Shown here piece after piece: positions 32,757 to 47,942 of a stretch of DNA of 64,000 bases (position 1 is the stretch's first letter; the number at the start of each line of letters is the position of its first letter). A program made the translations under genes and the position numbers. This DNA comes from a virus. Lineage: Duplodnaviria; Heunggongvirae; Uroviricota; Caudoviricetes. The stretch spans positions 69,979-133,978 of IMG/VR virus record IMGVR_UViG_3300021387_000091. One strand, 5' to 3'. The notes beneath the pieces are model-generated. The model worked only from the letters and a program-made list of their open reading frames with translations. It made no database searches and had not been told where the DNA came from.

Positions 32757-33364
32757 TATAATAATTTAGCAAGTTCTATAACAGATATTGAAATCTTATA
32801 CTCCTTAATATAATCTTCCATAGTCTTTCCATCCTTGAGGTACCAACAGGCACACTTGGCGGGGTTTTCATATGTCCAACAGCCCTTACACCAATCACAA
32901 GTCTTGGCAGGACAACCGATCTTACATATATGATCTTCTGGAATGAAAGGTTCGGGGTTACCATTTTCATCCCTATGAAACTCATTCCAAGCCTTTTCAC
33001 TTTCAATGAGCTGATTCTTTTCATCTTCTTCAAACCCACAGGTAAAAGAGTAAAGGCGGAACACCTTTCCAATCTTCTTTTCCCTTTCCTCACGGATCAT
33101 ATCCAGTCTCTTCTGGGTTTCCTCATCAGGTAAATCATTACCATCCTGTGTCTTGAACCATCCATTCTTGCGGTATGCTTCCGGCTGATAAGAATCATAC
33201 CAGGACAGACAGCGGTTATCATGGGGAGCACCCTCCTTGAAAGCATACTCAATGTAATAACCTTTGTCATCCTTCTTGAGAACAACAATGGTGTCAATCA
33301 TAGGGCGTCCAAACACATCCTTCTTATTTTGGAGATCTTCTTTAATAAGTTCTATAACGTCCAT
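32756..33364 (-). CDS. hypothetical Cys-rich protein (start of GC-richer island)
   Basis: ORF track; composition shift to ~45% GC. Confidence 0.5.
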   Translation of the reverse strand: MDVIELIKEDLQNKKDVFGRPMIDTIVVLKKDDKGYYIEYAFKEGAPHDNRCLSWYDSYQPEAYRKNGWFKTQDGNDLPDEETQKRLDMIREEREKKIGKVFRLYSFTCGFEEDEKNQLIESEKAWNEFHRDENGNPEPFIPEDHICKIGCPAKTCDWCKGCWTYENPAKCACWYLKDGKTMEDYIKEYKISISVIELAKLL

Positions 33365-33768
33365 TATAATATTACTTCCTTTTCAATTTTACAAAGCTTA
33401 AGGGCGTGCTGAAGCTGATGAACATATTCACATGTTATATTCGAATCATATATGTTAATGAAGCAAGGCCAATTTCCCTTTTTATCAAGACACGCTGTTG
33501 CTAATTCAAGTCCTTCATAAATCCACCAACCATTCCACACCGAATCCTTATTGTCGTTCCGGAGGAAATCAAATTCATTTTTCTCCAAGATTTCTGGTGT
33601 AAGAGGAACACCATCTACTTTGTCTTCTGAATGATACCTATCCTCAGCGAGGGTATATAATTCATCGTCGGCCATGATTTCGTCATCAATGCCATTTACG
33701 GCTTGAATCTTGCGAGGAGTGCCGTTTATCAGCACCCAATCCCCAACCATTAGTTCATTAGCTTTCAT
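33364..33768 (-). CDS. hypothetical protein
   Basis: ORF track. Confidence 0.5.
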   Translation of the reverse strand: MKANELMVGDWVLINGTPRKIQAVNGIDDEIMADDELYTLAEDRYHSEDKVDGVPLTPEILEKNEFDFLRNDNKDSVWNGWWIYEGLELATACLDKKGNWPCFINIYDSNITCEYVHQLQHALKLCKIEKEVIL

Positions 33769-33786
33769 CTTCTTTCTATGTTAGGC

Positions 33787-34032
33787 TTATAGTTTATCAA
33801 ACAATCTATCAATGACTACAATAGGGAGTAGTACAACAATAAAAGCTACACACAGAGGCCAGATAGCAGTACGGGCGCATACATCACATTTCCATACCTC
33901 CGGAGTAATCTCATGTACCACATCATATTCAATAGTGTACTCTCCATTTTGAAAAGGGAAGAATCGTTTTTCCATCCATATCCAACAAAGGATACCGAGG
34001 ATATAAACTGCTAACAATATCCAACCAATCAT
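33787..34032 (-). CDS. small membrane protein
   Basis: ORF track. Confidence 0.4.
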   Translation of the reverse strand: MIGWILLAVYILGILCWIWMEKRFFPFQNGEYTIEYDVVHEITPEVWKCDVCARTAIWPLCVAFIVVLLPIVVIDRLFDKL

Positions 34033-34158
34033 AATTTCTCTTTTAGGCTTTCGTTAGGTTAATAAAAAGGCGCAGCGTTCATTTTCCTTCTTATGTGTTG
34101 CTATGCAAGTTACCACGAATGTAATGTAGAGCCTTTACTTTTCTTCTGCGCCATATGG

Positions 34159-34599
34159 TTACTGTTTCTTTCGAATTTGAACTATAACCTTATCTCCGGG
34201 ATTAAACTCTTCGTAGGGGACAAACACATATTTTCTATCTTCTAAATCACTATATTTTACTTCATCAGTGTATCCCTGCCCCGTTATCCACTCAACACCA
34301 GCTTTGAAAATGTTAAGGAAAGATAATCCTTCACCATCTTCAAGTCTGATATGTGCCTGTATCGCTGCCTCGTCAAGATTTGAGGGAAGCAGTGAGATGT
34401 TGTCAAGCATTGCTTCTGTTCCATCAACGAACTGAACCACGAAGAAGAATTCTTTTAGACCATCAATAGAAAATGATTTTATTATATGAGGTCTTCCGTC
34501 ACCATCTTTCAGGCGAACTTTATCTCCTATTTTAAAACCATTTATAGAGGTTATGGGTTGTGAAAGTTTGAGCATATTATATTGAGTTAAGTTTGTCAA
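34159..34599 (-). CDS. hypothetical protein
   Basis: ORF track. Confidence 0.5.
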   Translation of the reverse strand: MTNLTQYNMLKLSQPITSINGFKIGDKVRLKDGDGRPHIIKSFSIDGLKEFFFVVQFVDGTEAMLDNISLLPSNLDEAAIQAHIRLEDGEGLSFLNIFKAGVEWITGQGYTDEVKYSDLEDRKYVFVPYEEFNPGDKVIVQIRKKQ

Positions 34600-34821
34600 T
34601 TACATCCATAAAAGCATTCCTTCGTCCGTAAGAACGCTCTGCTTTGCGGCTTTCATCATTTCCTCTTCCGCCCACTCTAGCAGCACGCCCTTGCGGATGT
34701 ATTTTTCATTTTGGACGGTATGACCTCTCATTCCTTTCTTTAACGGTTCAAGAGTCCAGTTTTTACATGGTTCGTCATCAAAAAAATAGCCGTGTAAGAA
34801 AATAGTTTCTGGTGCTTTCAT
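34600..34821 (-). CDS. hypothetical protein (paralog of 37427-37657)
   Basis: Shared YIRKxxLLEWAEE motif. Confidence 0.45.
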   Translation of the reverse strand: MKAPETIFLHGYFFDDEPCKNWTLEPLKKGMRGHTVQNEKYIRKGVLLEWAEEEMMKAAKQSVLTDEGMLLWM

Positions 34822-34982
34822 TTGCTTTCCTCCTTTCTTGTGTTTTTATCCATTTTCTTGTCAAACCTACGATTGGATAAATCTACGAGCCAGCATTCAA
34901 TAAGATCCCACCCTCCGAAGAGAAGAGCGCATATTAACGCTCCTATAATGCCGCACACAATACCATCAATCGTTATTATCAT
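34818..34982 (-). CDS. small membrane protein
   Basis: C-terminal half of ORF 34818-35153 starting at ATG 34980-34982, just after stop of upstream gene. Confidence 0.35.
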   Translation of the reverse strand: MIITIDGIVCGIIGALICALLFGGWDLIECWLVDLSNRRFDKKMDKNTRKEESK

Positions 34983-34983
34983 A

Positions 34984-35607
34984 TTATTCCTCCTTTCTTG
35001 CGTTAAGACCGAGTTCGTAGAAGTAGCGGGCAAACCGAGCAATTCTTGGAGCCCAATCTTTATAGTTTCTAAGTTCTCCAATAAAGCCGATTGTGTATTG
35101 TTCAATTTCTTTCTCCAAATCCACCTCCGACTGCTCCTGCTGGAGAATCTCATTTACTTCATCCTGCGTGAACATAAAATCCATGCAGTATTGTTGTAAG
35201 CAACAAAGGACTATTTCCGCCCCTACACTTTCCATATATTCGCTAAGTATAGCAAGGTCATGTGGAGCAATATTCCTCTTAATTTCGGTGGCTCGTTCTT
35301 TTGTTTCTTTTATGCGGTCAATAGCGTTAGAACGATGCAAGCCAATCTCGCTTATCAGCAGGCCATAATTCATCCAGCCCTTCTTTTGTGTCTCCTGTTC
35401 GATGCGCGGTACCTGTGTAAGTTTCGGCTGCTCCTGCTGGAGAGATGAGATAGTGCGTAAGACATTTTCGTATTGTAAAACTACAGCGTCCCATTTCGTG
35501 CAATCAGATGATGTTCCGGTTTCTCCCGCAAAACGGGCTTTTTCCTTTGCATCAAGATATTTTTTTTCTATCTTCTCTTTTAGTTTGTCCGCGTCAATGT
35601 ATTTCAT
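34984..35607 (-). CDS. hypothetical protein
   Basis: ORF track. Confidence 0.5.
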   Translation of the reverse strand: MKYIDADKLKEKIEKKYLDAKEKARFAGETGTSSDCTKWDAVVLQYENVLRTISSLQQEQPKLTQVPRIEQETQKKGWMNYGLLISEIGLHRSNAIDRIKETKERATEIKRNIAPHDLAILSEYMESVGAEIVLCCLQQYCMDFMFTQDEVNEILQQEQSEVDLEKEIEQYTIGFIGELRNYKDWAPRIARFARYFYELGLNARKEE

Positions 35608-35609
35608 GG

Positions 35610-36383
35610 CTAAAGTAGTTTTTGAAGGTCGTTATAAAGTGACACAAGAATACGATAGGCATCATATCCACCCACAGACGCATTATGAATTTCTTTTGCT
35701 TTGGAAACACAATCCAAAAGGCAACGCATCTGTTCCTCGCTCGGCTTCCAGCGCCTGTAATACATACTTTTTAAAGCGTCGGGATTGCTGTTCTTTTCAA
35801 TAGATAGACATACCCCATTGAATCGCAGAATAAGACATTCACCGATTTTTCTCGCTTCTTCGATGGTATCACTAATCGCCTTGTCGATAATAGTACCAGG
35901 GCGGGGTTCATATACCCTCACATAGCCTTCCTTGCTCCACTCTGCGGGCTGCTGGTCTTGTGTTAAAGTGTCCTTGTCTGCTGGCCAATTTCGTGCAACA
36001 TAGTCTCTGCGCTCCTTGATTATCTCATCGTCTTCTCCGATATGACAGACATACCAACCATGTCTTTTCAGGGCGTGGTGCAATGCTGCTGGAATATAAC
36101 TATCGCAAATACCATAATCAGGTTCAGCTGTACCAGATTCATCTCTGGGCTTCTGCTCTTTCTGCCTTTCGAGGTAGGCAATAGCTTCGTCTTTTGTAAC
36201 ATCATTAATAAGTGTCCCATCCTGGTGGGCTGCTGCACAGATAGCATAACTTATTGCTTTCCTTATTCTCTCGTCCTTGCTCTCCTTGAGCTCAATGATA
36301 ACCTTGTTACCTTCAATTCTAGCTTCATAGCCTTCAGGTATCTCACGCTCATAACGAATCGCCATATTTGCTTGTTCATTCAT
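35610..36383 (-). CDS. hypothetical protein (cassette A; paralog of 44607-45293)
   Basis: Shared IPEGYEARIE...NDLQKLL ends. Confidence 0.5.
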   Translation of the reverse strand: MNEQANMAIRYEREIPEGYEARIEGNKVIIELKESKDERIRKAISYAICAAAHQDGTLINDVTKDEAIAYLERQKEQKPRDESGTAEPDYGICDSYIPAALHHALKRHGWYVCHIGEDDEIIKERRDYVARNWPADKDTLTQDQQPAEWSKEGYVRVYEPRPGTIIDKAISDTIEEARKIGECLILRFNGVCLSIEKNSNPDALKSMYYRRWKPSEEQMRCLLDCVSKAKEIHNASVGGYDAYRILVSLYNDLQKLL

Positions 36384-36386
36384 ATT

Positions 36387-36767
36387 CTAAATCAAATTTT
36401 CGAGACAATACTTGATAGCCGCTTCACAAGCACTCTCATAATGCTCATATATCCATCCTTGATGATACGATTCATTGGTTTTAGCAACAGTTATCTCAAT
36501 ATCCCAAAGAAATTTTTCATTATCGAGTACACTACTTAAAATTGGCACAACAGCCACACCTTTATCTTCTCTCAGCCATTTCATTACCATTTGAATGGTT
36601 GGACAACAAATAAAACAAAAATCAGGTTGAATTATTTGAGAGTTAGTTCTATTACTTGTTGGAATATATTCTCCATTTTTATTATATCCTAAATAACATA
36701 TTTCATCAAACTCTTTCTCTTTTAAGAGTTTCGCTACCTCAAAGCTAACGTAATCTTCAGTTATCAT
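36387..36767 (-). CDS. hypothetical protein (paralog of 46190-46588)
   Basis: Shared MITEDYVSFE...AIKYCLENLI. Confidence 0.5.
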   Translation of the reverse strand: MITEDYVSFEVAKLLKEKEFDEICYLGYNKNGEYIPTSNRTNSQIIQPDFCFICCPTIQMVMKWLREDKGVAVVPILSSVLDNEKFLWDIEITVAKTNESYHQGWIYEHYESACEAAIKYCLENLI

Positions 36768-37015
36768 ATAAGTTTAAATAAAATGTCGGTGTAGAAACAA
36801 AATTCATTAGGCCAGTCTTCAAGATTTCCATTCTTATCAATCCTAATGTATTTATTTTTGAAAAGAATCTTGTATCCAGTAGCCTGTTCTGCTTTTATTT
36901 GTGCCCTAACATTGTCGAGACTTATTATATTTGTTATAAGTCCGAGATTTTTTCTTTCTGGGGAAATCAAAAATGCTTCAAAATTTCCGATGTTGTTGTT
37001 AATTACAATTGCCAT
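36764..37015 (-). CDS. hypothetical protein (paralog of 47371-47652)
   Basis: Shared FEAFL.SP motif. Confidence 0.45.
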   Translation of the reverse strand: MAIVINNNIGNFEAFLISPERKNLGLITNIISLDNVRAQIKAEQATGYKILFKNKYIRIDKNGNLEDWPNEFCFYTDILFKLI

Positions 37016-37017
37016 AT

Positions 37018-37449
37018 CTATTCAGTTTTATACATCCCTTCTGGCGCTTCTAATGCTAGTCCCATAGGAATTAAACCACGATAATCGAAATGATGGGCAT
37101 TGAGCCAGTCCTGTTTATTTGTTGTAAGAAAATATTCTTTGCATTCTCCACTTTCGATAGAAAGAAATTCCCGTGTTTCATCAAATGTCATACTTGACAT
37201 GGGACGGAGATAGGGCTTGATTTCATCCGGATAAAAATACTCAGAAGCTTCATACAAACCAATTTCCTCCGTTTCAACGCAAACGCTCACTATCCTATCG
37301 TCACAATATCTCTCTATGCCTAAATCCGCGTCTTCTTCGTTATCATAATCGATTTGGCACTTGATACCATAAGGCAACCTTGCACATATATCTTTCAGTA
37401 GTAGTCGTTTTTCTTCTTGTGTCATATTACATTGAGTTGAGCTTGTCAA
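37018..37449 (-). CDS. hypothetical protein (paralog of 46928-47359)
   Basis: Shared LLLKD.CARLPYG...GLIPMGLALEA. Confidence 0.5.
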   Translation of the reverse strand: MTSSTQCNMTQEEKRLLLKDICARLPYGIKCQIDYDNEEDADLGIERYCDDRIVSVCVETEEIGLYEASEYFYPDEIKPYLRPMSSMTFDETREFLSIESGECKEYFLTTNKQDWLNAHHFDYRGLIPMGLALEAPEGMYKTE

Positions 37450-37657
37450 TTAAAGTATTCCAGGCTTTCAACATAGCACCTTTACCATTAAGTTTCTCGG
37501 TGATAGAAGCCTGTTCTTCCGCCCACTCCAGTAGAGCGTCCTTGCGGATATACTCTACATTGATATCATGTTCGGACTTATCAAGATACCACAATCCATG
37601 AGGTGAGTTGTCCTCCGAAAAATTACGGGAAACATAAATTTTGTCTGGTTTATTCAT
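37427..37657 (-). CDS. hypothetical protein
   Basis: ORF track. Confidence 0.45.
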   Translation of the reverse strand: MNKPDKIYVSRNFSEDNSPHGLWYLDKSEHDINVEYIRKDALLEWAEEQASITEKLNGKGAMLKAWNTLIDKLNSM

Positions 37658-37851
37658 TTATTCTTCCTCCCTTATAACCGTTAATTTAACTTTATCTCCG
37701 TATTTAATACTTTCGTCATGCGGAAATAAAACAGTAAAAACATGATTATCATCAAATCGAAATGCCGCCTTATCATATCCAAACACGCCACACGCGATTG
37801 TTACGATACCTTCAACATCGTATTTTATTACTTTTCTCTTGTTTTGAAATC

Positions 37852-38094
37852 TTACCTATTCCACCAACAATCCATATACATTCCTTTATATGGACCACTA
37901 TTCCTATTAAGAAAAGCAAGAATATCATCGGGTTTCATAGTTCCTTCTGACAATAGTTGCAAAGCCATACTACAGCATCCGTAATCAACTCCTGGACAGA
38001 CAAGTCTTGAAAGATTTGCACTCCTACAAATATTTTCAGCATATTCAGATGCTGCCCTTTGAATATGCGGTTTATAAAGTTCGTAATTGGTCAT
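37852..38094 (-). CDS. hypothetical protein
   Basis: ORF track. Confidence 0.4.
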   Translation of the reverse strand: MTNYELYKPHIQRAASEYAENICRSANLSRLVCPGVDYGCCSMALQLLSEGTMKPDDILAFLNRNSGPYKGMYMDCWWNR

Positions 38095-38548
38095 ATGTTT
38101 CTATGTTAGTGAGGTTATGAAAACTATATTCATCACCATTATAACAATGATTTAATATTATTAATTGGTCAGAAACCACATCTCCGTTTTTACCAATGTA
38201 ATATAAACTTCCTTTTGGAATCACAGCATTGAAAATTAAACTACCCGATGTACTCATAAGTATCGGTTCTGCAGCAAGACTATTCACATAACTATGGTAT
38301 CCTTCATTCACTATCCAATAATTTCTTCCAGAAAAGAATTGTCGCTTTAACCCTAAAGTGGTCTTTTTACACTCCATGACACAATTAGCATCAAAAAATA
38401 CACACATGCCTTGATATGGTGTATAATATGAATCACTAATTTGTTCCAATACTTTAACCACCCTTATATTGGTTTTGGCAACAAGCGGCTTTGGTTTTAT
38501 AAAAAACAGTCGCTGTTTATGGATTTTTTCATTTATTGATAAACACAT
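38072..38548 (-). CDS. hypothetical protein
   Basis: ORF track. Confidence 0.45.
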   Translation of the reverse strand: MCLSINEKIHKQRLFFIKPKPLVAKTNIRVVKVLEQISDSYYTPYQGMCVFFDANCVMECKKTTLGLKRQFFSGRNYWIVNEGYHSYVNSLAAEPILMSTSGSLIFNAVIPKGSLYYIGKNGDVVSDQLIILNHCYNGDEYSFHNLTNIETYDQLRTL

Positions 38549-38616
38549 ATTTTCTTAAGAGAAGTTGAAAACATAAACTATTTGTAGATTGATAACTTTT
38601 ATTTTATCCACATTTA

Positions 38617-38940
38617 TTATCGTTTGCGTTTTTCAATTAGTTCGTTAAATTTATGTAAGATAATCTCACTTGCCTCTTGAATAGACGGAGCGTCTTCGTC
38701 TTCACATCGACTGATGTTACCAGCTTCTACTTCCTGTTCATAGATGGTAATAAGGATAGCCACATCCTTCCAATTTAGTATAAAATCTTGCTTCACTTCA
38801 ATATGACTGACGATAGCATCTTTTGACTCAATCTCGAAATCAATATTAAAGTCATTATCGTTACATTTAAGAGGCACATCGGCAGAGTTAAGACAATTGC
38901 CGATGTCCTTTATTTTTCTGTATAAATCAAATAGTGTCAT
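38617..38940 (-). CDS. hypothetical protein
   Basis: ORF track. Confidence 0.45.
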   Translation of the reverse strand: MTLFDLYRKIKDIGNCLNSADVPLKCNDNDFNIDFEIESKDAIVSHIEVKQDFILNWKDVAILITIYEQEVEAGNISRCEDEDAPSIQEASEIILHKFNELIEKRKR

Positions 38941-38943
38941 TAT

Positions 38944-39200
38944 TCTTCCTCTAATTTTTTACGAAATGCTTTAATAAAATCGTCACTATATACCTCCACA
39001 AAAACTAGCGCAATTATATAAAACTTTTATTGGAAGCATTGAATTAAGAACATTACAAACTCTTTCTGCTATATCTTTCTCCGCCTGTTCGTAGCCTTTC
39101 CGATGACAAGTCTGCTTTCCATATTCGGGTCATAATCCATATCTCGATAATCCCATTCGAGTTTTTCAGGATATGCCTCTAACGCCCTTTGTTCTGCTCT
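38944..39200 (-). pseudogene. frameshifted paralog of 39206-39460
   Basis: MDRAEQRALEAYPEK... in one frame and ...YEQAEKDIAERV... in another match the N-terminal and middle parts of the neighbouring gene product. Confidence 0.35.
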
Positions 39201-39205
39201 ATCCA

Positions 39206-39460
39206 TTATTCTTCCTCCATTGATGCTCTAAATTGCTTAACAAAAGCATATTTTATATCAGGGTTTTGCGACAATTCTCCAAGATGTCGAACAAGATATT
39301 CTGCTACTCTTTTAATCGTATCTTTTTCTGCCTGCTCATAAGCCTCTTGTGCAATCAGACGGAAAGTAGCATTGACATCTTCGTTCTGTTGAAGCCAACC
39401 AACTTTTTTTATTTTATACGGAAATTGCTTATTAGCATATTCTTCTGCTCTTTTACTCAT
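39206..39460 (-). CDS. hypothetical protein
   Basis: ORF track. Confidence 0.45.
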   Translation of the reverse strand: MSKRAEEYANKQFPYKIKKVGWLQQNEDVNATFRLIAQEAYEQAEKDTIKRVAEYLVRHLGELSQNPDIKYAFVKQFRASMEEE

Positions 39461-39737
39461 ATTTAATGATTAAAGTATCTCCTGGATTTGTATGTTCATA
39501 TGTATATTTTCCAACGAAAATTGAACATAAATGATGATCGTCAATGTCAGAAAGAAATATTCTATAGTTACCTCCCAGAGTTGTTATTTTTTCTTCTACG
39601 AGATACCTATGACTTTCTTTAGTTGATTCTTTACAAGACAATAAACAAAGTAATGTAATAAAAATTATTATTATCTTTTTCATACTTAGTCCTCCTTGAA
39701 TCCGGGAAGTTTTTCGAGAGAACGAACTGGAATACAA
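39453..39737 (-). CDS. lipoprotein
   Basis: MKKIIIIFITLLCLLSCKES signal/lipobox. Confidence 0.45.
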   Translation of the reverse strand: MYSSSFSRKTSRIQGGLSMKKIIIIFITLLCLLSCKESTKESHRYLVEEKITTLGGNYRIFLSDIDDHHLCSIFVGKYTYEHTNPGDTLIIKYE

Positions 39738-40381
39738 AGCATTTTATGATTAACCATACAATTAGGTTCGATAATATGAAAATCATTATCGTTTATCCAA
39801 CCTTTTATAAGCATTGTTTCCGTTGTGACACAATCATTTTCATCTGTTCTTTTGGTGGTAGCTTCTTCTATTGTTCTCCACCTCGGCAAGTCCTTCAAGG
39901 CTTCGGCTTTGCCCTTATTCATTGCCTCTACATACTTCTTATCAAATTCTTCAACCGAGAGCACTATATTCCCGGACAATGCGAGTTCTTTCCTTGCAAG
40001 GGCAAGGAGTTCGGCGGCCATTCCCTTGGTTTCTTCAAGAAGTTCTGTTGCCAATAGGTGTTCACCATTCATAAGATTCAAACGACGGTGTATTGCCATT
40101 TCAAACTCGCTCAGTTCTTCCTCCGGCGTGACGATGAAAAGGTCTTTTCTTCCAACTCTTGAGGAATCAGACAAGCAATAGCCATTTTGTGCATAGAATA
40201 AAGCATTTTCTGTCCCGCCTTTTGATTTGACAAGAGCTAATATATCATCGTGTACTTTTGAATATGAATTCTTCACATCCCAACACACAACACGAACTTG
40301 TCTTCCATCTTTAGTTTCCACCTTATACTCTCCGCTTTCAATTTGCGGTCTGAATTTAATGTCAAAAGGTATCTTTGCCAT
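39686..40381 (-). CDS. hypothetical protein
   Basis: ORF track. Confidence 0.5.
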   Translation of the reverse strand: MAKIPFDIKFRPQIESGEYKVETKDGRQVRVVCWDVKNSYSKVHDDILALVKSKGGTENALFYAQNGYCLSDSSRVGRKDLFIVTPEEELSEFEMAIHRRLNLMNGEHLLATELLEETKGMAAELLALARKELALSGNIVLSVEEFDKKYVEAMNKGKAEALKDLPRWRTIEEATTKRTDENDCVTTETMLIKGWINDNDFHIIEPNCMVNHKMLCIPVRSLEKLPGFKED

Positions 40382-40382
40382 A

Positions 40383-40742
40383 TTAAATGTTTAATTTTAT
40401 TTTTAAAAGATCTATAATTTCAGATTGTATCTTAGGTTCCCAAGGAGACATAATTTCAAGAATAGAGTTGATGATATTCTCTCTTTGACGATCAAATTTT
40501 TTAAATTTAATAACAAGTTCCTTACATCTGGAATCATTTTTGGAAAGACAATTATAATCTTCTATTCCACATGATATACGTCCATCTTCGCTTTCCCATG
40601 TTGTTAACTGAAGATATGGAGTTTGTTTTCCTTTATCGTCAAGATAAAATTCTTTTGTCACTTTGATAATAATAGCAGTTTCAATAGAACCATCTAGACA
40701 TTCAAAGAAAATCCTATCTCCAACTTTATATTGTTTTTTCAT
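40383..40742 (-). CDS. hypothetical protein
   Basis: ORF track. Confidence 0.45.
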   Translation of the reverse strand: MKKQYKVGDRIFFECLDGSIETAIIIKVTKEFYLDDKGKQTPYLQLTTWESEDGRISCGIEDYNCLSKNDSRCKELVIKFKKFDRQRENIINSILEIMSPWEPKIQSEIIDLLKIKLNI

Positions 40743-40752
40743 AATAATTTAG

Positions 40753-41232
40753 TTAAAATTCAGATTGGACAGAAAAGAATGACTTTTCTCCAGAGCCTAC
40801 AACATAGACTTCATCTTTATTAACAACAAAATCAATACTCCCTGTAAAATCTGAAATAACTGTTGCACACCAAGGATGTTCTTTTAGCCAATCCTGATCT
40901 CTATTAGACAAATTATCATAAATAAATACAGCAACATCTCCTCCATCAGCACAAAACTCTCCTAAGCAATTTTCTTTAAGCCAGTTCTTTTTAAATTCAT
41001 TATATTCATCACTTAATTTCTGTTTCTTATCAGGATCTTTCTCTGAATTATAGTCATAAAAGAATTTAAAATATTTTTCGTTCCACTGATTAGGAAGATT
41101 GTTATTTTCTATGGTTCCTGGATATACCATACAACTTCAATCCCCATAAATTGTATTTCTTTTCATTTCTGGAAAAGAAGATTTCATGTAGCAAGGATCT
41201 GTTATTACAATAGTTTCATTTTTAACTTTCAT
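40753..41232 (-). CDS. hypothetical protein (possible N-terminal extension through TGA at 41137)
   Basis: ORF 40753-41130 plus in-frame upstream ATGs at 41166, 41187, 41232. Confidence 0.4.
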
Positions 41233-41233
41233 A

Positions 41234-41653
41234 TTATTTAAATTTATTAGTATTATACCATTCTTCAGATACCCAAATATTATTAGGAATTGAACCTGCA
41301 GCAATAAACATATCAATCATTTCTAATCCAGTATATCCATTTAACGATCTCAAATTAGTGTTTCTATATGCTATTTTAAAATCGTAATTTGGATTATCTT
41401 TAGCACACTGATATAATTTTTTAATGTTTTCTATTATTTGTTCTTTACTAATAGATCTGACTCCTGGAATTCTTAAATCTTTAGTTGGAAGTGCATAAGC
41501 ATGTCCTTGAAGTCCTTCACCCTGTCCATATTTAGCTCCAAACATTTGTATTGCAGTAAGTGCCGCTCCAGCACCATGCCTTCCTTCTGGATTTGAGCCA
41601 AAGACAAAAATTGTATTTTCTTCAGGAATAATGTTTCCAGTATAATATTTCAC
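41234..41653 (-). CDS. hypothetical protein (FGSNPEGRHGAGAA motif; possible nucleotide-binding fold)
   Basis: ORF track; motif not confidently assigned. Confidence 0.45.
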   Translation of the reverse strand: MKYYTGNIIPEENTIFVFGSNPEGRHGAGAALTAIQMFGAKYGQGEGLQGHAYALPTKDLRIPGVRSISKEQIIENIKKLYQCAKDNPNYDFKIAYRNTNLRSLNGYTGLEMIDMFIAAGSIPNNIWVSEEWYNTNKFK

Positions 41654-41655
41654 AA

Positions 41656-41943
41656 CTACTTATGTTTTATTGTAAAACTAATAACTTCAATAGGAGCACT
41701 TGTTTTTTCAAGATGGTGTCCATTACACATAAACCAATTATTGTTTTCAAAAACTGCTAGTGAATTACTTCCTCTATCACTATTTAAAATATATATAGGT
41801 TCATCAGTAGAATTGAATGTATAAGTTTTAACAGTAGGAATATTAGAATAATAAATATTATAAACTATTGTAGCAGTATAATCCCTATTAGAGTTACAAC
41901 TACATAGAAGAAAAGCAATCAAAGCAATTATAACTTTTTTCAT
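41656..41943 (-). CDS. lipoprotein
   Basis: Lipobox LLCSC. Confidence 0.45.
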   Translation of the reverse strand: MKKVIIALIAFLLCSCNSNRDYTATIVYNIYYSNIPTVKTYTFNSTDEPIYILNSDRGSNSLAVFENNNWFMCNGHHLEKTSAPIEVISFTIKHK

Positions 41944-41945
41944 AC

Positions 41946-42131
41946 CTAATCTTGAAAATGTTTTATTCCTTCATACCAATCATCTGGAGTAGGTTCAAAA
42001 TGAGGACCACCAATATTCATTTCATATTCTTTCATTGAATCATAATCATCCAAATGAACGCCAAATCCAGGAGAATCATATTCTGGCTGTATATTACAAC
42101 CATCATCACTAAAATGTTTCATAATTAAGAT
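41946..42131 (-). CDS. hypothetical small protein
   Basis: Manual translation MKHFSDDGCNIQPEYDSPGFGVHLDDYDSMKEYEMNIGGPHFEPTPDDWYEGIKHFQD. Confidence 0.3.
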   Translation of the reverse strand: MLIMKHFSDDGCNIQPEYDSPGFGVHLDDYDSMKEYEMNIGGPHFEPTPDDWYEGIKHFQD

Positions 42132-42145
42132 TTTTGCATTAAAAT

Positions 42146-42457
42146 TTAATTTACGCCAAAAATCTTTTCATAATCAGACAAATCTTCATTCTTTGTTGAT
42201 GAATTCAGATCACCTTTACATTTTCGACAGTCTGGATCATGGACTATTCCACCGTGTTTATAATGTGAATTAACATTAAAACTTTCATTAGTAAACCAAA
42301 TGTAATCATGATTTCTAAAAGTAAAAGTTCTAAAATCTCCACGTTCCGGAACTTCGTTTCGTTCTTCGTAATGTTTTTCTTGTTCTGGAGTCATTTCACA
42401 ACTAGGAATCGCTAGAAAAACTATTACAAATATTAGATCCCAAAAAATTGTTTTCAT
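42146..42457 (-). CDS. lipoprotein (paralog of 30760-31077)
   Basis: Signal peptide; shared H.P.C.KCK motif. Confidence 0.5.
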   Translation of the reverse strand: MKTIFWDLIFVIVFLAIPSCEMTPEQEKHYEERNEVPERGDFRTFTFRNHDYIWFTNESFNVNSHYKHGGIVHDPDCRKCKGDLNSSTKNEDLSDYEKIFGVN

Positions 42458-42488
42458 TTCAATTAAAGTATATATAATTTGTGTTTAG

Positions 42489-42574
42489 TGACTCTAGAGA
42501 GACTCGAACTCTCGACCCCCTGATTAAAAGTCAGGTGCTCTCTAGCCTTTCGGAACCAACTGAGCTATAGAGTC
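42489..42574 (-). tRNA. tRNA-Lys(TTT) with ~11-nt insertion in the D-loop
   Basis: 86 nt; GACTCTA TA GCTC AGTTGG[TTCCGAAAGGC]TAGA GAGC A CCTGA-CTTTTAA-TCAGG GGGTC GAGAG-TTCGAGT-CTCTC TAGAGTC A. Confidence 0.7.
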
Positions 42575-42785
42575 AAATTGGATAGTTACGTCGTCCTATC
42601 CAGTGCTATCCCTCAGTGACTCATTTCTCATTGGGATACACTTATAGCGGATATGTAGTCACCACTCACCGCACGAAAAAAATTTAGATACAGAGATATA
42701 AAGACCTCAATTAGTTCATTAAAACCCACTTACGGAATCCGTATTGGACCGAGGACGTTGAATTGAACTTACTCTATATCTATAC

Positions 42786-43616
42786 TTATTTAACTACAGA
42801 AAATTTAGCAGTTCGACAACCACAGACATAATCCCATCCAGTGAGAATGAATAGGGTATCATCACTTCCTAGGTATGAATCACCTATCTCATTACAATCA
42901 AATTTACTGGTTCTCAGTTTTATGATTATCTCATTACCATAATCATCTATTAAATAACTGCAGTCACGCTGAATCCCAGCTCCTCCTGGAGTTCCTTCAC
43001 ATCGAGGAGACCTTTCTTTATGGACTCGATCTCGTTGCGAAGAGACAAGTACTTCTGGACATCTAGAGGATAAGTAGATTTTACTTCCTCCAACTCGCGT
43101 TCCTTGGATTTCAATTCCCGCTTGGTTGCAATGACGTCCTGCTGTAAGTTGAGGTCGGTTTCTTCCACCATAAAGGATACTTCCTTCGTAATGTTCGGAG
43201 TTAGAATTTCCTTGCTTTTGTAATTGATTTTGATTTTGTCCATTTTGTTTAAAATCTAATATAAGTGTTGATTTAATTATATTTAAAAATTCTCGATAAT
43301 CTGATTCAACTAAATAAGGCCAACAATCGTCTTTAAATAAATCTCTCTTGCAACCTTTATAAGTTTGTGGTTTAGATTTCCAAACCGATGCATTATTAAT
43401 TGTAAAAGTTCTGTCTACTAATTCATTAGACTCTTCTGTATAAAATCCGTCTAGAATAATATAACTGTTTGTAACAGCTCTTTCAATTATTCTTGAGCAT
43501 GCATTAAACACAATAATATCTAAATCCTTTTCTTTTTTTAATTCAGTTAATGCTTTTACTAATTTTTTTACTTGATTATCGTTAAGTAATTTATAATAAT
43601 ATATAACCGATACCAT
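42786..43616 (-). CDS. hypothetical protein whose middle crosses a GC-rich ~400-nt island
   Basis: AT-rich N- and C-terminal parts in one continuous frame; GC-rich middle reads as low-complexity sequence. Confidence 0.4.
   Translation of the reverse strand: MVSVIYYYKLLNDNQVKKLVKALTELKKEKDLDIIVFNACSRIIERAVTNSYIILDGFYTEESNELVDRTFTINNASVWKSKPQTYKGCKRDLFKDDCWPYLVESDYREFLNIIKSTLILDFKQNGQNQNQLQKQGNSNSEHYEGSILYGGRNRPQLTAGRHCNQAGIEIQGTRVGGSKIYLSSRCPEVLVSSQRDRVHKERSPRCEGTPGGAGIQRDCSYLIDDYGNEIIIKLRTSKFDCNEIGDSYLGSDDTLFILTGWDYVCGCRTAKFSVVK
42950..43243 (-). CDS. coiled-coil protein encoded in the GC-rich island (overlaps 42786-43616 in another frame)
   Basis: ORF track 97 aa; GC-rich codon usage unlike surrounding genes. 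Confidence 0.4.
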   Translation of the reverse strand: MDKIKINYKSKEILTPNITKEVSFMVEETDLNLQQDVIATKRELKSKERELEEVKSTYPLDVQKYLSLRNEIESIKKGLLDVKELQEELGFSVTAVI

Positions 43617-43622
43617 ATTTAA

Positions 43623-43886
43623 TTATGATTCTTTTAATATATTATAAAGATCTTTACAATACTTATGATAAGGCACAGGCTGCGTTGAAATACCTGATCT
43701 AGAAATCCATTCTAATCCAGAAATATGCTGTTCTGTTATCTTATCTTTAAATATATTATATCCTCTAATTAAAGCTTCTCTTAAAGGTTCATTTTCATCC
43801 TTCTTACAATTAAATGTACCTTTACTATAAGAACCAACAATTTTAACCGGATATAATTCTAGTGCAATTTGTTCTATTGTTTTCAT
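43623..43886 (-). CDS. hypothetical protein
   Basis: ORF 43623-43931 trimmed to internal ATG to avoid tRNA-Leu. Confidence 0.4.
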   Translation of the reverse strand: MKTIEQIALELYPVKIVGSYSKGTFNCKKDENEPLREALIRGYNIFKDKITEQHISGLEWISRSGISTQPVPYHKYCKDLYNILKES

Positions 43887-43904
43887 AATATTTGTTTTGT
43901 TTTG

Positions 43905-43990
43905 TAGCGGATGTCGGAGTCGAACCGACACAGCCTATGCAGGCCATCAGAGCTTAAATCTGACGTGTCTACCAATTTCACCAATCCGCC
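43905..43990 (-). tRNA. tRNA-Leu(TAA), class II
   Basis: 86 nt; anticodon arm TCAGA-TTTAAGC-TCTGA, variable arm GGCCTGCATAGGCT, T-arm GTCGG-TTCGACT-CCGAC, A73. Confidence 0.8.
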
Positions 43991-44074
43991 AAAAATCCTA
44001 GCTTTTAAATGGAGCTAGGGAACCAGATTTTATAAAAAATAATCTACCACACATTTATCTTTCGATAAAGTGAG

Positions 44075-44570
44075 GCACTATTTTACCACTATAGCTTTCG
44101 CTACCAGAATAAAACTCTGTTCAATCATTGACATTATCTCTGATGTGTCACAGTTAATTCTGTTTAATTCTGTTTGTGGTCTGGACTGTATCTTAACCAT
44201 ATTGAAATCTCGCGAGTTAGGTTTTAGTTTTCTAAGATTCCTCCAACGCTAACTTTTCGAAGATTCGGAATCTCTCAGTTGTCTTTTCCTATTTCAACTT
44301 AGGTTCCTCCTGTATCTAGTCTCTACACACTGTCTATTCGCTTATTGCAACTGTATACTAATTTAATAGTCAAGTTTTCAAACACTCAAAGATGTTATTG
44401 GGTTGCACGAAATAACATTGGCTCGGTATTGGCATACTCAAGGTTAGTTTCAAACCCATTCTATCATTCAGATAGTATAATTTAGAACTATAGCCTTCAC
44501 CGAATTAGGGAGGTTCTACATCCAAGGTTTTCCTTGGTGCACTCAAATTTTTAAACTTAAGATATGATTT
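44075..44570 (-). other. group I intron-like element homologous to the intron at 24265-24489, not within a recognisable tRNA
   Basis: Shared blocks with 24265-24489 (plus-strand): ctacacactgtct, acattggctcgg.attg.cat, ccgaattagg.g, gttctac, tgt.gtctgga, cttaaccata, actata.ctttcg.tacc; two extra insertions. Confidence 0.45.
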
Positions 44571-44606
44571 ATTCTATTCTTAAATACAATTCTCGTACCA
44601 AAATTA

Positions 44607-45293
44607 CTAAAGTAATTTTTGAAGATCATTAATAAGCAACATTAGTATTGGGAGATGTTCATCTTCACCCCATGTATCATGTGTTTTCAGAACAGAATAA
44701 GATGCTTCTAATGCGTCCATTTGTTCCTTGCTCGGCTTCCAGTGAGGCTGTTTACGGAAGGATTTGAGGAAATCTATCTTAATCTCAATAATTGCGGCGT
44801 GGTCTTTATCTTTGACAAGACTATCCTCATAATCTTTAATGATTGATTCCAACCATTGTTCATCTTCCTCGCTCCACTCTACTGACTGCTCTTTCTGTTT
44901 TCCTGCTAAAAATCCCTCACGAAAACCCTTTGCAAAGGCAAGTTCTATACGATTATCTTCATATCCATCTACTGCGGATGCCCCACTATCATTATAGAAT
45001 TTCCAAGCCTTGTCAAGTGCTTCCTCAAAAGATTCTTGGTCATTATAGATAGGAGTCATCCGATTATACTTTTCTTTGGTTTTCTGCCTTTCTATATAAG
45101 CAAGAGCCTCTTCTTTTGTTGTATGTGAACCTGGAGAAATCACACTTCCATCCTCAAGTGCAAATTTTATGAAGGTTACAATATCATTCCTTATCCTTTC
45201 GTCTTCGCTCTGTTTAGGTTGAATAATAACATTATTTTCTTCAATCCGAGCTTCATATCCTTCTGGAATTTCATATTTGTAGTAAGGTTTCAT
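44607..45293 (-). CDS. hypothetical protein (cassette B; paralog of 35610-36383)
   Basis: ORF track; shared motifs. Confidence 0.5.
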   Translation of the reverse strand: MKPYYKYEIPEGYEARIEENNVIIQPKQSEDERIRNDIVTFIKFALEDGSVISPGSHTTKEEALAYIERQKTKEKYNRMTPIYNDQESFEEALDKAWKFYNDSGASAVDGYEDNRIELAFAKGFREGFLAGKQKEQSVEWSEEDEQWLESIIKDYEDSLVKDKDHAAIIEIKIDFLKSFRKQPHWKPSKEQMDALEASYSVLKTHDTWGEDEHLPILMLLINDLQKLL

Positions 45294-45295
45294 GC

Positions 45296-46069
45296 TTACA
45301 AATTTAAAAATGGAAGTTCTTTTTTAAAATTTAAGATTTCTATAAATTCTTTGTTATCAACGAACTCTTTCCAATTCTTATTTAACCAATCAAAATCATA
45401 GTTGAAATTTGGTTTGAATTTGGAATCAATTTTGTTCATTATTTGTAAACACATATCGTCGAACAGTTGTTTACCATACTCAGTATCTATACGTTTACAA
45501 AGAATATGACCCCACCAGTGAACAATATCTTCAAGTTCATAGCATTGATCTGCAATTATTTGCTCACAAGATCCAGAATCAAAATCATCTCTATGTCTTA
45601 CAACACTACAACGAACATTCCAAAGATCAATTACCCTATTTATTTTAATAACCTTTAAAATATTAAGATTTTCTGAAAGACACACATAATAAAGATGCTT
45701 TTGCATTATTAAATTATTAAATTCATCCTCAGAAATAGGTGATATTGGTTCATCAATAATACAATCTTGTAAACTTATAAAGGCCCATCCATTCATTCTG
45801 AATATAGTATAACGGGGATTTATAGATGATTGAAAAACAATATTTACATCTTTAAGTTTCTTAAGATCATTATCTGAAGCCTTACTAATAACAATGTAAT
45901 GTAATGCCCCTTCATGAAGACAATGCCCTATGCTATTACTTCCTGCTGTATAAAATAGACTGTCATCTGGAAGTTCAATTACATGTCTTTGTGCGTCTTT
46001 AGGATGTATACTATAACATCCAAATCTTACAGTAATTTTCATATTATTTACTATTTTTTGCGAGTTCAA
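45296..46069 (-). CDS. hypothetical protein
   Basis: ORF track. Confidence 0.5.
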   Translation of the reverse strand: MNSQKIVNNMKITVRFGCYSIHPKDAQRHVIELPDDSLFYTAGSNSIGHCLHEGALHYIVISKASDNDLKKLKDVNIVFQSSINPRYTIFRMNGWAFISLQDCIIDEPISPISEDEFNNLIMQKHLYYVCLSENLNILKVIKINRVIDLWNVRCSVVRHRDDFDSGSCEQIIADQCYELEDIVHWWGHILCKRIDTEYGKQLFDDMCLQIMNKIDSKFKPNFNYDFDWLNKNWKEFVDNKEFIEILNFKKELPFLNL

Positions 46070-46189
46070 TCAAAGTCTGCATTGCTTCAATATCCTCTTC
46101 AGATACACAATAAGAGGCTTCGTACCAAAACTCATACCATCCATCTATGGATTGCTCGAGTCGCTTTATTGCTTGTTCTTTAGTCATAA

Positions 46190-46588
46190 CTAAATCAGAT
46201 TTTCAAGACAATATTTAATAGCAGATTCACAGACTTCCTCATAGGAATCTTTATACAAACAAACGTTCGGCACATCCACATCATCTATTTCGCCGTTATT
46301 TTTTATCTTAATGACAGATGCTACATATGTGAATCCAAGTCCGCAAATATTTGCATAATCTGTCGTAATGACAATACGATGAACTTCCCTCAACCACTTC
46401 ATTGCCATTTGGAGGGTTGGCGCTAGGATAGCATTATGCATTTCACATCCAGATGCTTCAACCTCATATTTTTCATAACTAAAAGAACCAGCATTCCCAT
46501 AATGAGCTCTGCATCCTTCATCAAACCCCTTTTCCTTCAGGAGTTTTGCTGTTTCAAAAGAAACGTAATCTTCTGTTATCATAATCAT
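46190..46588 (-). CDS. hypothetical protein (paralog of 36387-36767)
   Basis: ORF track. Confidence 0.5.
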   Translation of the reverse strand: MIMITEDYVSFETAKLLKEKGFDEGCRAHYGNAGSFSYEKYEVEASGCEMHNAILAPTLQMAMKWLREVHRIVITTDYANICGLGFTYVASVIKIKNNGEIDDVDVPNVCLYKDSYEEVCESAIKYCLENLI

Positions 46589-46739
46589 ACAATATTATAA
46601 AGTATAGACGTGCTGTTTCAAATTCTATACACCAAACTGTCAAACCATGATGTGTAGGCAGTTTCCAAACAAGGTTCTAACTTGGACTCCTTCCATACTT
46701 AGTTTATTGATACATAATGCAATTATAATAATCATACCT

Positions 46740-46925
46740 TCATTTCTTTAGGCTCTTTCCGTAAAAATCAACATATCGTTTTACTGTATCATCTATACAG
46801 TCTTTTAGAGATTCATATCCGAAGTAAGTATTTTCAGGATAGCCCTTAAGTTTTGAGTATTCCCAGTTTTTAGGATTGTTATATGCCCGAACTATCTTTT
46901 TCTTTAAGATTGATAGCTTTGTCAT
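46740..46925 (-). CDS. hypothetical small protein
   Basis: ORF track. Confidence 0.35.
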   Translation of the reverse strand: MTKLSILKKKIVRAYNNPKNWEYSKLKGYPENTYFGYESLKDCIDDTVKRYVDFYGKSLKK

Positions 46926-46927
46926 GC

Positions 46928-47359
46928 TTATTCGGTTTTATACATATCTTCTTTAGCTTCAAGGGCCAGTCCCATAGGGATTAAGCCACGAAAATCGAAC
47001 ATCTTTTTGTTAAGCCAATCGATTTCATTAAACAATACTCTATCACTAACAATCATTCCATCAGAGTATTTGTATGCTATTGGAGCATCTATACTATCTT
47101 CAAGAATGGCAAAATCTTTCTCAAATGCTTTTCTATATTCATTTCTTTCCTCCTTAGTCATACTTGACATTGGACGGAAATATGGCTTAATAGTATCTAT
47201 CCAATAAGGAAGATTCGAATATTCTCTTATATAAACATCTTCATCCCTTATGTAATGAATTTCTCTTATGCATTCTTCATTATCGGCCTTAAATTTTACT
47301 CCATAAGGCAATCTTGCACAAAGGTCTTTAAGTAGTAGCTGTCTATCTTCTTGTGTCAT
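46928..47359 (-). CDS. hypothetical protein (paralog of 37018-37449)
   Basis: ORF track. Confidence 0.5.
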   Translation of the reverse strand: MTQEDRQLLLKDLCARLPYGVKFKADNEECIREIHYIRDEDVYIREYSNLPYWIDTIKPYFRPMSSMTKEERNEYRKAFEKDFAILEDSIDAPIAYKYSDGMIVSDRVLFNEIDWLNKKMFDFRGLIPMGLALEAKEDMYKTE

Positions 47360-47370
47360 AATAATTGAAT

Positions 47371-47652
47371 TTAAAATTCAAGAAGGGTATCAAGATAATC
47401 ATCAAGATAAGATATTGGAAAGTTATTTATTCTTCCTGTCTTACTTATTTGATATTTTTTACCATTGTAAATAAGATAGTATCCTGATTTACCACTTTTG
47501 GCTATTTTGCATTCAAAATCCAAAAGGACAATGTCATTTCTTATTATACCAAGAAATTGTTTGGTTGGAGAATATAGAAATGCCTCAAATTCTCCCGCAT
47601 GTAGATTAAGAGTTAATTCTTTTTCTTTCTGTGTCATAACTAATATCCCCAT
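47371..47652 (-). CDS. hypothetical protein (paralog of 36764-37015)
   Basis: ORF track. Confidence 0.45.
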   Translation of the reverse strand: MGILVMTQKEKELTLNLHAGEFEAFLYSPTKQFLGIIRNDIVLLDFECKIAKSGKSGYYLIYNGKKYQISKTGRINNFPISYLDDYLDTLLEF

Positions 47653-47942
47653 TCAATAGACCAATATTCCCAAGGATCCCAAACTCTATCAATGTCGAAA
47701 CCATCTTCACGAAGTCTCGCAATCGTATCATATGTTGCTACCCAATTAAATTCATCGGCACTATTCTTACTAGGGAGAAGGACATATGCTTCTCCATTCT
47801 CCATTGCTTCTTTTATTCTCCTTTGCGCTTCTTCATAATTTCGCTCATCATTACCATTTGTGTAGTAAGCATTTACCATTTCTTCTTTTGTCATGATAGT
47901 TTTGTTTATACTGATATACGCTATTTCATTTAAAAAAGCCAC
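47640..47942 (-). CDS. hypothetical protein
   Basis: ORF track. Confidence 0.45.
   Translation of the reverse strand: MAFLNEIAYISINKTIMTKEEMVNAYYTNGNDERNYEEAQRRIKEAMENGEAYVLLPSKNSADEFNWVATYDTIARLREDGFDIDRVWDPWEYWSIEWGY

Follow-up and report, generated by a model that had tools for sequence, protein, structure and literature searches.

What does it mean that one phage carries, on the same strand, two sets of the same small, uncharacterised proteins? The sets, here called cassettes A and B, lie in a stretch of 64,000 nucleotides (nt) that was analysed as a whole (the window), positions 69,979 to 133,978 of IMG/VR virus record IMGVR_UViG_3300021387_000091. An earlier note on this DNA had described them as diverged copies of a four-gene cassette in GC-richer islands, acquired horizontally and then duplicated. 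Our analysis leads to a different reading, to which we give a probability of about 0.5: the two cassettes are old members of a recurrent cassette, (W)-L-(F)-I-E, with a host-interaction role, the letters standing for five protein families. The anatomy of the cassettes and their mode of evolution are the parts of this reading of which we are highly confident.

Two cassettes and five paralogous families

All-against-all BLASTP of the 411 open reading frames (ORFs) of the window returned paralogue pairs for E, I, F, L and W only, and family hidden Markov models (HMMs) recovered exactly two members per family (Table 1). The four protein pairs recognised in the earlier note are borne out, with 33–45% identity and BLASTP E values of 9e-14 to 1e-32, and so is the content of four paralogous families, except that the fifth pair, W, had been overlooked. 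The claim that both copies keep the same gene order fails. Read as transcribed, on the minus strand, cassette A is W-L-F-I-E and tightly packed, whereas cassette B reads F-L-(61 aa)-I-(47 aa)-(257 aa)-E, with F and L swapped, three extra, unrelated ORFs inserted and no W. The cassette proteins are acidic and soluble, with isoelectric points (pI) of 4.4–5.4. The likely start of L_A is the ATG at 37425, and not the mechanical ORF boundary at 37449, because the family consensus begins MTQEEK and a public gene call gives 135 amino acids (aa).

Both W genes are followed by nearly the same 30-nt junction, which runs from their stop codon to the ATG of the gene behind (37423–37452 and 34573–34602) and reads TAATTGACAA.CT.AACTCAAT.TAATATG. 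To judge from these two copies, the W gene and its junction seem to form a mobile unit placed ahead of differing downstream genes.

Recurrence of the ordered cassette in other phages

To avoid circularity, co-clustering was counted in 69 non-redundant IMG/VR loci picked through I alone, with the family HMMs applied over 8 kb. L was present in 51 of these loci, E in 41, W in 20 and F in none. Furthermore, the neighbours hold a direction: L precedes I in 38 cases versus 15 (p=0.002), I precedes E in 20 versus 5 (p=0.004), and W stands first in seven of seven adjacent W/L pairs of other viral contigs (7 versus 0, p=0.016). The GC content of the contigs in this set lies between 24 and 46%, and it reaches 53% in a second set ascertained through L, in which the loci form arrays such as E~W-L~I-E..L~I..L~I..E-E..L. 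One 176,790-bp contig packs nine L, two E, two I and one W into 16 kb. At the level of gene content, these counts show (W)-L-I-E to be a cassette of small, uncharacterised proteins that is widespread among the large phages of gut and rumen, keeps a preferred order on a single strand and is present in many copies, up to a dozen per 16 kb.

Profile–profile comparison with hhalign found no relationship among L, I and E (probability ~1%), and the idea that they are one diverged superfamily was dropped. As no relationship among the three is detectable, tandem duplication of a single gene does not account for their order. The families are also joined within single proteins. Specifically, an E N-terminal module is fused to L in a protein of 424 aa; the same C-terminal DUF6794 domain is found on both L and I proteins (L094, L109, L146, L093 and P0032); and an L domain is fused to a complete dihydrofolate reductase (L042, 5174–6076, on an ENA scaffold of 176,790 bp) that is 37% identical to E. 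coli FolA (E value 6e-29). In addition, one metagenomic protein joins homologues of three separate genes of the region, 39686–40381, 34984–35607 and F.

The order and the fusions bear on a simpler account, in which these are ordinary accessory genes with a conserved core and tolerant loops, duplicated neutrally, clustered through tandem duplication only and sharing no function. It is usual for large phages to have paralogous families whose function is unknown, and adjacent pairs of the same family are common in the loci studied here (L-L 29, I-I 47, E-E 8), both of which count for this account. It leaves unexplained why unrelated L, I and E hold a directional L→I→E order across contigs of 28–53% GC, and why families occur fused with one another or with one and the same additional domain. 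It also fits poorly with the replacement, described below, of whole non-homologous segments between near-identical strains in which F and I are unchanged, a pattern that is not neutral drift. We regard it as rather improbable.

The families are large. Searches returned at least 7,990 homologues of L and at least 7,986 of I, all metagenomic and uncharacterised, and E has 284 at E values of up to 1e-3, which are modular and cover the protein in part. Among 50,697 GenBank phages, tblastn with L and E found no match, and I occurs as single copies in the crAss-like phage cr106_1, in B. thetaiotaomicron phage DAC19 and in Cellulophaga phages. The DAC19 copy is gene DAC19_43, which lies inside a long run of tiny ORFs resembling an early region. 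Within genome_contigs, a GTDB set with one genome per species, L was confined to contigs of metagenome-assembled genomes (MAGs) from gut and rumen, and at least one such contig (410,106 bp) is also listed as viral in IMG/VR.

Two of the MAG contigs deserve mention in their own right. ONIZ01000001.1 (410,106 bp, carrying L063 and L070) and CACYXI010000001.1 (286,648 bp, carrying L052, L054 and L057) are packed with cassette families and were deposited as bacterial MAGs, 'uncultured Firmicutes' and 'uncultured Bacteroidales'. In both cases a very large phage genome was probably binned as bacterial.

Pfam, NCBIfam, PADLOC and PDB sequences returned no more than noise for L, I, E and W, whether single proteins were searched or each member of the alignments in turn. 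Matches were found in PHROG. Residues 4–122 of I_A align with positions 2–127 of the 137 positions of phrog_12005, a full-length match that I_B gives likewise; L_A and L_B match phrog_10841 (E values 3.2e-6 and 5.2e-6) over profile positions 2–99 of 163 only; and E_B has a partial match to phrog_5819 (E value 9e-5). All three entries are of 'unknown function', and PHROG records neither the co-clustering nor the mosaic architecture reported here. A literature search found no prior description of these families or of DUF6794.

Segment exchange at conserved anchors

The alignments of L, I and E show near-invariant anchors, N-terminal, middle and C-terminal, around segments without conservation. 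The anchors of L are MTQEEKxLLLKDLCARLPYGVK ... IKPYLRPMSSMTEEE ... DWLNxxHFDYRGLIPMGLALEAPEGMYK, those of I are MITEDYVSFETAKLLKEKGFDE ... PTLQMAMKWLREVH ... YEEACEAAIKYCLENLI, and those of E are ESEDERIRK ... YLEKQK ... EWSEEDE ... LKSLRPQPHWKPSEEQM ... LYxxLxKLL. The variable segments assort independently. In blocks of 20 residues, protein P0005 is 100% identical to L_B in segment V1 and 5% identical in V2, P0002 shows the reverse, and the same independence is seen in I and E. In the AlphaFold models of L_B and I_B, the anchors are mainly helices and the variable segments mainly β-sheets, a predicted arrangement that would fit a constant scaffold with variable exposed faces.

The exchange can be followed between near-identical strains. 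Contig L050, from a sister sample, shares 93–98% DNA identity with cassette A and the sequence on either side; its F is identical to F_A, and its I is identical to I_A save residue 2. In L050, unrelated sequence takes the place of the W C-terminus, of the two variable segments of L and of the C-terminal modules of E, and the breakpoints fall at the anchors. Specifically, the L050 E gene begins with the N-part of E_A, continues with 168 nt that are 91.7% identical to E_B (44721–44888), and ends in a third, unmatched module. Consistent with this mosaic, the N-terminal 140 aa of E_A are 95–100% identical to a chimeric sister-strain protein, P0128, which is present on two contigs. Read from the genes, these comparisons show evolution by segment exchange at anchors, from gene to gene and phage to phage and also between both cassettes of one phage lineage.

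Paralogues and chimeric sister-strain genes of this kind could in principle be mis-assemblies of strain mixtures, as the data are metagenomic and the coverage of L050 is 3.6x. We consider an assembly artefact extremely unlikely, because the chimera stands on two contigs and because the stretches over which A and B agree exactly at the anchors are much shorter than the k-mers used by assemblers. In addition, the region is identical in two independent assemblies, from the European Nucleotide Archive (ENA) and the Joint Genome Institute (JGI), and the same mosaic pattern recurs in thousands of independent sequences.

A repeat search of the region found only the coding anchors, at 71–90% identity, with neither repeats of the kind used by diversity-generating retroelements nor inverted repeats of the invertase type, and no dedicated recombinase or repeat signal for segment exchange was found. 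A target of a diversity-generating retroelement was ruled out, as the segments are non-homologous replacements and not point-mutated repeats; the Pfam-scanned ORFs include no reverse transcriptase.

The two cassettes of the window are old with respect to each other. Within the conserved motifs, only ~52–69% of the residues identical between A and B share a codon, and the B copies are closer to genes on other phage contigs (L_B 63–72%, I_B 73–74%) than to the A copies (45% and 39%). Because of this synonymous divergence and these closer relatives elsewhere, A and B appear to be old cassette lineages, kept or separately acquired in one genome, and not the products of a recent local duplication.

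The surroundings are variable as well. In 35 related phage contigs, the adjacent Band_7 gene is kept at 41–77% identity (one outlier, 27%), and within ±10 kb these contigs have almost no common genes except those of the I family. The accessory arm that holds both cassettes, with all its genes in one direction, is plastic by this comparison of gene content. The earlier note's description of a mosaic accessory module is confirmed at two levels, by the plastic arm and by the mosaic genes within it, and its proposal of horizontal exchange draws support from the sister-strain segment swaps, from the closer outside relatives of the B copies and from the compositional heterogeneity described next. 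The further step, acquisition followed by duplication, is not supported, as A and B are not closest relatives and their synonymous sites have diverged.

Base composition and the origin of the cassettes

The window has 32.4% GC overall and 30.2% over positions 1–32755, which we use as background. The islands of 40–47% GC that had been claimed for the cassettes exist at 32756–36383, are patchy in cassette A and are absent from cassette B. In the seven genes of the first segment, GC at third codon positions (GC3) is 0.30–0.46 (0.38) versus a background of 0.19 (Mann–Whitney p=5e-5); none of the seven has a Pfam match. Within cassette A, I_A and F_A together have 31% GC. Cassette B has 33.1% GC with a modest rise in GC3 (0.26), and one of its 61 intervals of 300 nt reaches 40%. 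In other phages, too, genes of the E family exceed the DNA around them in GC, and therefore part of the GC signal belongs to the family.

Composition and divergence bear on the case of a single foreign, GC-rich four-gene island that was acquired and duplicated in this genome and whose copies then drifted apart. Such an origin would explain two copies of four families within 12 kb on the same strand, and a cassette A that is, with its adjoining genes, GC-richer than the backbone. It is at odds with the low protein identity (33–45% only), the synonymous differences inside conserved motifs, the closer relatives of L_B and I_B on other phage contigs, the differing gene order and a cassette B that is not GC-rich. 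Furthermore, multi-copy arrays occur in many unrelated phages, so the multiplicity predates this genome. We judge this origin very unlikely and retain that of two old lineages.

The F protein and the Menshen system

A profile of F_A and F_B found 365 cluster representatives, either free-standing proteins of ~85 aa or C-terminal domains of longer ones. PF12476 (DUF3696) is matched by 45 of 60 F-family proteins at E values up to 0.01 (best 2e-15), and four of eight tested F homologues match the last ~55–66 positions of the PADLOC NsnB model. Placement of F in the DUF3696 superfamily is supported by way of these intermediate sequences. In the Menshen ABC ATPase NsnB, DUF3696 forms the C-terminal tail, and in AlphaFold 3 models it clamps the N-terminal domain of the effector NsnC (PMC12065111). 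Bacteroidota hold 15.5% of Menshen systems, and phage-encoded DUF3696 is not mentioned (PMC12065111).

NsnB combines an ABC (OLD-type) ATPase with the DUF3696 tail and is encoded next to NsnA and NsnC, whereas F is a free-standing phage protein of ~85 aa without the ATPase. The F proteins of the window, at 83–93 aa, have no ATPase domain and are not NsnB, and no NsnA- or NsnC-like genes were found in the region; F is related to the NsnB tail only. An iterative search in the fetched loci found F only in this phage lineage. F, a lineage-specific addition to the cassette, would be a free-standing DUF3696 tail and might act as a decoy for NsnC docking. We think such a decoy unlikely; the link between F and DUF3696 provides a concrete lead toward a phage decoy against Menshen-type ABC-ATPase defence.

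A possible host-interaction role

We infer that L, I and E may act together, on a common scaffold and with segments specific for polymorphic targets, most likely host defence. Cooperation among the three is suggested because E-L fusions exist and because one C-terminal domain is common to L and I. The anchors would supply the common scaffold and possibly the contacts that join L, I and E, while the swappable segments would form specificity surfaces toward polymorphic host targets. Each cassette would then represent a single isoform of a module for host interaction, most likely for counter-defence; a genome with several cassettes would have broader coverage, and the paralogues would serve as donors for gene conversion. 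A counter-defence function is possible, although we would put the odds somewhat against it. The earlier note had suggested an anti-defence or host-takeover locus, a hypothesis for which the relationship of F to DUF3696 is the one specific lead. The most elaborate form of the proposal treats the cassettes as a combinatorial binder repertoire, with an L/I/E complex, interchangeable recognition surfaces, isoforms and conversion donors, and F as an NsnB decoy. It would be a phage counterpart of variable-receptor and antigenic-variation families, aimed at host defence effectors, and we hold it to be speculative and unlikely in full.

Several points weigh against a host-interaction cassette of this kind or against parts of it. 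The pattern of anchors and inserts might reflect nothing more than a stable core whose loops tolerate change, and none of L, I, E and W has a match among families of known function. The loci that establish co-occurrence were chosen for holding one family, and many come from similar rumen samples. F, with its score of 0 out of 69, is not a core part of the cassette. Its assignment is thin at the level of the window's own proteins, as F_A matches DUF3696 at 16.6 bits (E value 0.0097), below the Pfam cut-off of 22, and F_B gives no hit. The docking role of DUF3696 is itself an AlphaFold 3 prediction, and DUF3696 is described there as an alpha-helical tail (PMC12065111), whereas F homologues match the PADLOC NsnB model over its last ~55–66 positions. 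Finally, no match to the Bacteroidetes promoter motif was found on the minus strand of the region.

Comparison with characterised proteins was likewise negative. Known anti-defence proteins (anti-CRISPR, Ocr/Ard-type and similar) gave no sequence or fold match to a characterised inhibitor, and the combination of alpha-beta3-alpha fold, sequence signature and Pfam match that marks a double-stranded RNA-binding domain was not found.

The same mosaic architecture could instead serve conflict among phages. The cassettes would then be selfish or phage-versus-phage elements, for superinfection exclusion, inter-phage competition or as addiction-type modules, with their diversity arising from conflict in co-infection. 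Conserved ends, swappable cores, many paralogues and fusions do resemble polymorphic toxin/immunity loci, and the families are confined to phages of the same habitats. Against this, the small proteins are acidic and soluble and show no sign of a toxin-like, nuclease or membrane domain, PADLOC and Pfam gave no match, and no pairing of toxin with immunity gene is evident. We consider this explanation unlikely.

It is improbable, in our view, that the proteins are packaged in the capsid or injected with the DNA like the internal proteins (IPs) of phage T4, with the terminal motifs as packaging or processing signals and the variable parts acting in the new cell. The T4 IP loci share the logic of a conserved N-terminus and a variable body, and the cassette proteins are small and acidic, with conserved N-terminal motifs beside hypervariable bodies and with polymorphic paralogues. 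Their middle and C-terminal anchors are equally conserved, however, and in the models form helices that pack against the variable sheets. The genes, moreover, lie among tRNA and metabolic genes, and no recognisable morphogenesis gene stands near them in the window.

Relation to known variable loci

The reading that we prefer, of old and recurrent host-interaction cassettes, places the locus beside several known systems. It resembles the hyperplastic regions (plastic periphery) of T4-type and other large phages in its long one-strand run of small, mostly uncharacterised genes between conserved genes, in the near-complete turnover of content among relatives, and in its duplicates and pseudogenes. 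It differs in that an ordered (W)-L-I-E recurs many times per genome and across lineages, and in the intragenic mosaics with fixed anchors; we know of no description of an ordered, recurrent mosaic cassette for the T4-type regions. With the T4 IP loci it shares a short conserved motif beside a hypervariable body, polymorphic paralogues and a presumed arms-race function. T4 IPs are injected and carry a conserved N-terminal capsid-targeting sequence, and IPI* blocks a restriction system. The cassette anchors, by contrast, occur at both ends of the proteins and inside them and resemble core helices, not a cleavable signal, and there is no sequence similarity.

The multigene families and 'gene accordions' of poxviruses and giant viruses are similar in that paralogous host-interaction genes expand in variable regions and diversify under conflict. 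They belong to another host domain and to other families, and here diversification proceeds mainly by anchor-bounded segment exchange and not by copy number followed by point mutation. Polymorphic toxin/immunity and antigenic-variation loci offer a further parallel in their conserved flanks, swappable cores, silent or paralogous donors and domain shuffling, whereas the cassette proteins are small and cytoplasmic, without toxin or surface-antigen features. The cassettes belong among the known accessory multigene arrays of plastic phage regions, with a mode of diversification that is unusual and well documented.

L and I, each with at least ~8,000 members in public metagenomes, have as yet no Pfam entry, and describing L, I, E and W as an ordered, repeated, segment-swapping cassette turns anonymous ORFs into a defined, testable unit. 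If counter-defence is their function, they would give access to the almost unexplored defence and counter-defence biology of large gut and rumen Bacteroidota phages, and an example of segment-exchange diversification in phage accessory genes. If they are neutral passengers, the result is still a useful annotation of very abundant viral protein families.

Genomic setting and other features of the window

The source is a large (~177 kb), uncultured, Bacteroidota-type phage, because window positions 36928–57359 match part of a 176,743-bp metagenomic contig (ENA) at 100%, because the GroEL of the window is ~40% identical to GroEL of 160–180 kb Flavobacterium and Bacteroides phages, and because a DNA search of the whole 15-kb region against 50,697 GenBank phages returned a single 87-nt match at chance level. 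A shorter stretch of the window is also identical in an independent JGI contig. Transcription over ~1–58 kb is nearly all on the minus strand. The window encodes 18–19 tRNAs, GroEL, an AAA ATPase, IMPDH/GMP-reductase-like and adenylosuccinate-synthetase-like proteins, an SPFH/Band_7 protein and a CofE-like ligase. The features of the studied region are listed in Table 1.

Table 1. Positions of cassette genes and neighbouring features in the window
Feature	Positions	Strand	Evidence
GC-richer segment, seven consecutive small ORFs ending in E_A	32756..36383	−	40.6% GC vs 30.2% background
30-nt W-stop-to-next-ATG junction, copy 1 of 2	34573..34602	−	90% identical to 37423–37452
W_2, second W-family member, 73 aa	34600..34821	−	W HMM E value 1e-27; 36% identity to W_A, BLASTP 7e-6
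E_A, 257 aa, pI 5.4	35610..36383	−	E HMM 1e-56; 35% identity to E_B, BLASTP 8e-22
I_A, 126 aa	36387..36767	−	phrog_12005 E value 4.3e-9; 39% identity to I_B, BLASTP 8e-24
F_A, 83 aa, DUF3696-like standalone domain	36764..37015	−	33% identity to F_B, BLASTP 9e-14
L_A, likely 135 aa from ATG at 37425	37018..37425	−	45% identity to L_B, BLASTP 1e-32 (ORF 37018–37449)
W_A, 76 aa, directly upstream of L_A	37427..37657	−	W HMM; 36% identity to W_2
Frameshifted tandem copy (pseudogene) of neighbouring 84-aa gene	38944..39206	−	three-frame translation
Intact 84-aa gene, parent or partner of frameshifted copy	39206..39460	−	comparison with 38944..39206 copy
E_B, 228 aa, pI 4.8	44607..45293	−	BLASTP 8e-22 to E_A
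Unrelated ORFs, 257 aa + 47 aa (one 282-aa public gene call), between I_B and E_B	45296..46187	−	28% GC
I_B, 132 aa	46190..46588	−	phrog_12005 E value 2.8e-12; BLASTP 8e-24 to I_A; AlphaFold pLDDT 89
Basic ORF, 61 aa, pI 9.6, between L_B and I_B	46740..46925	−	unrelated, no window paralogue
L_B, 143 aa	46928..47359	−	BLASTP 1e-32 to L_A; AlphaFold pLDDT 86
F_B, 93 aa, DUF3696-like standalone domain, upstream of L_B	47371..47652	−	BLASTP 9e-14 to F_A

A frameshifted paralogue had been noticed near the cassettes. The frameshifted copy is real, but its parent is the adjacent 84-aa gene and not a member of a cassette family, and a decayed third cassette copy was rejected on this ground. Sister strain L050 has a single intact 91-aa gene at this place, made of the N-part of 39206–39460 and the C-part of the 38944–39206 copy, and compared with it the window copy has one frameshift and a 2-nt TA deletion. 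Nearby, a 276-aa ORF (42786–43616, minus strand) with a low-complexity middle rich in Gly, Arg and Gln encloses a more ordinary-looking 97-aa ORF in another frame (42950–43243), and may be a mis-called or frameshifted gene.

Cassette B is flanked by unusually long ORF-free stretches, 43904–44606 (~600 nt) and 47943–48773 (~830 nt), of which the downstream one adjoins a tRNA-Leu(TAA); Rfam at gathering thresholds found no RNA family in them. The two ORFs between I_B and E_B have no window paralogue and no Pfam or PHROG match. Scans of the region for sigma-70-type promoters and terminators did not rise above shuffled expectation.

A second and stronger GC-rich island lies outside the cassettes at 52800–57600 (43.2% GC, genes 39–47%). 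It adjoins two tRNA-Glu(CTC) genes (52274–52427) and a RepL-like gene on the opposite strand (~51.3–51.9 kb), and its ORFs have no Pfam match save one weak hit to the DHH family.

The SPFH/Band_7 protein (31370–32581, minus strand) is a useful marker gene for this phage group: 34 of the 35 viral contigs (~34–413 kb) keep it within the identity range given above, mostly among differing neighbours. The window also encodes an enzyme that is unusual in phages, a 350-aa protein of the F420-0:gamma-glutamyl ligase (CofE) family (48774–49826, minus strand; Pfam E value 3e-37), for which a peptide-word scan of viral contigs found no relatives. Two purine-related proteins are encoded on the minus strand. 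The one at 10757–11890 is IMPDH/GMP-reductase-like, and the one at 18386–19402 is a short (338 aa), divergent protein of the adenylosuccinate-synthetase family, with PurA as its top PDB matches (E value 4e-17) and an alignment that starts inside the P-loop; both PurA and the PurZ type (2-aminoadenine DNA) are candidates for it.

At the switch in gene orientation, 58069–58116, the Bacteroidetes promoter consensus (TTTG ... TAnnTTTG) occurs back to back on both strands. This is likely a divergent promoter region and may be read as a further hint of a Bacteroidota host. Finally, one of the phage tRNAs (10209–10302, minus strand), called tRNA-SeC by ARAGORN and tRNA by Rfam, has the anticodon TCA, which reads the stop codon UGA. 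It hints that UGA might be suppressed or recoded somewhere in the genome; the ORFs of the studied region are normal in the standard code.

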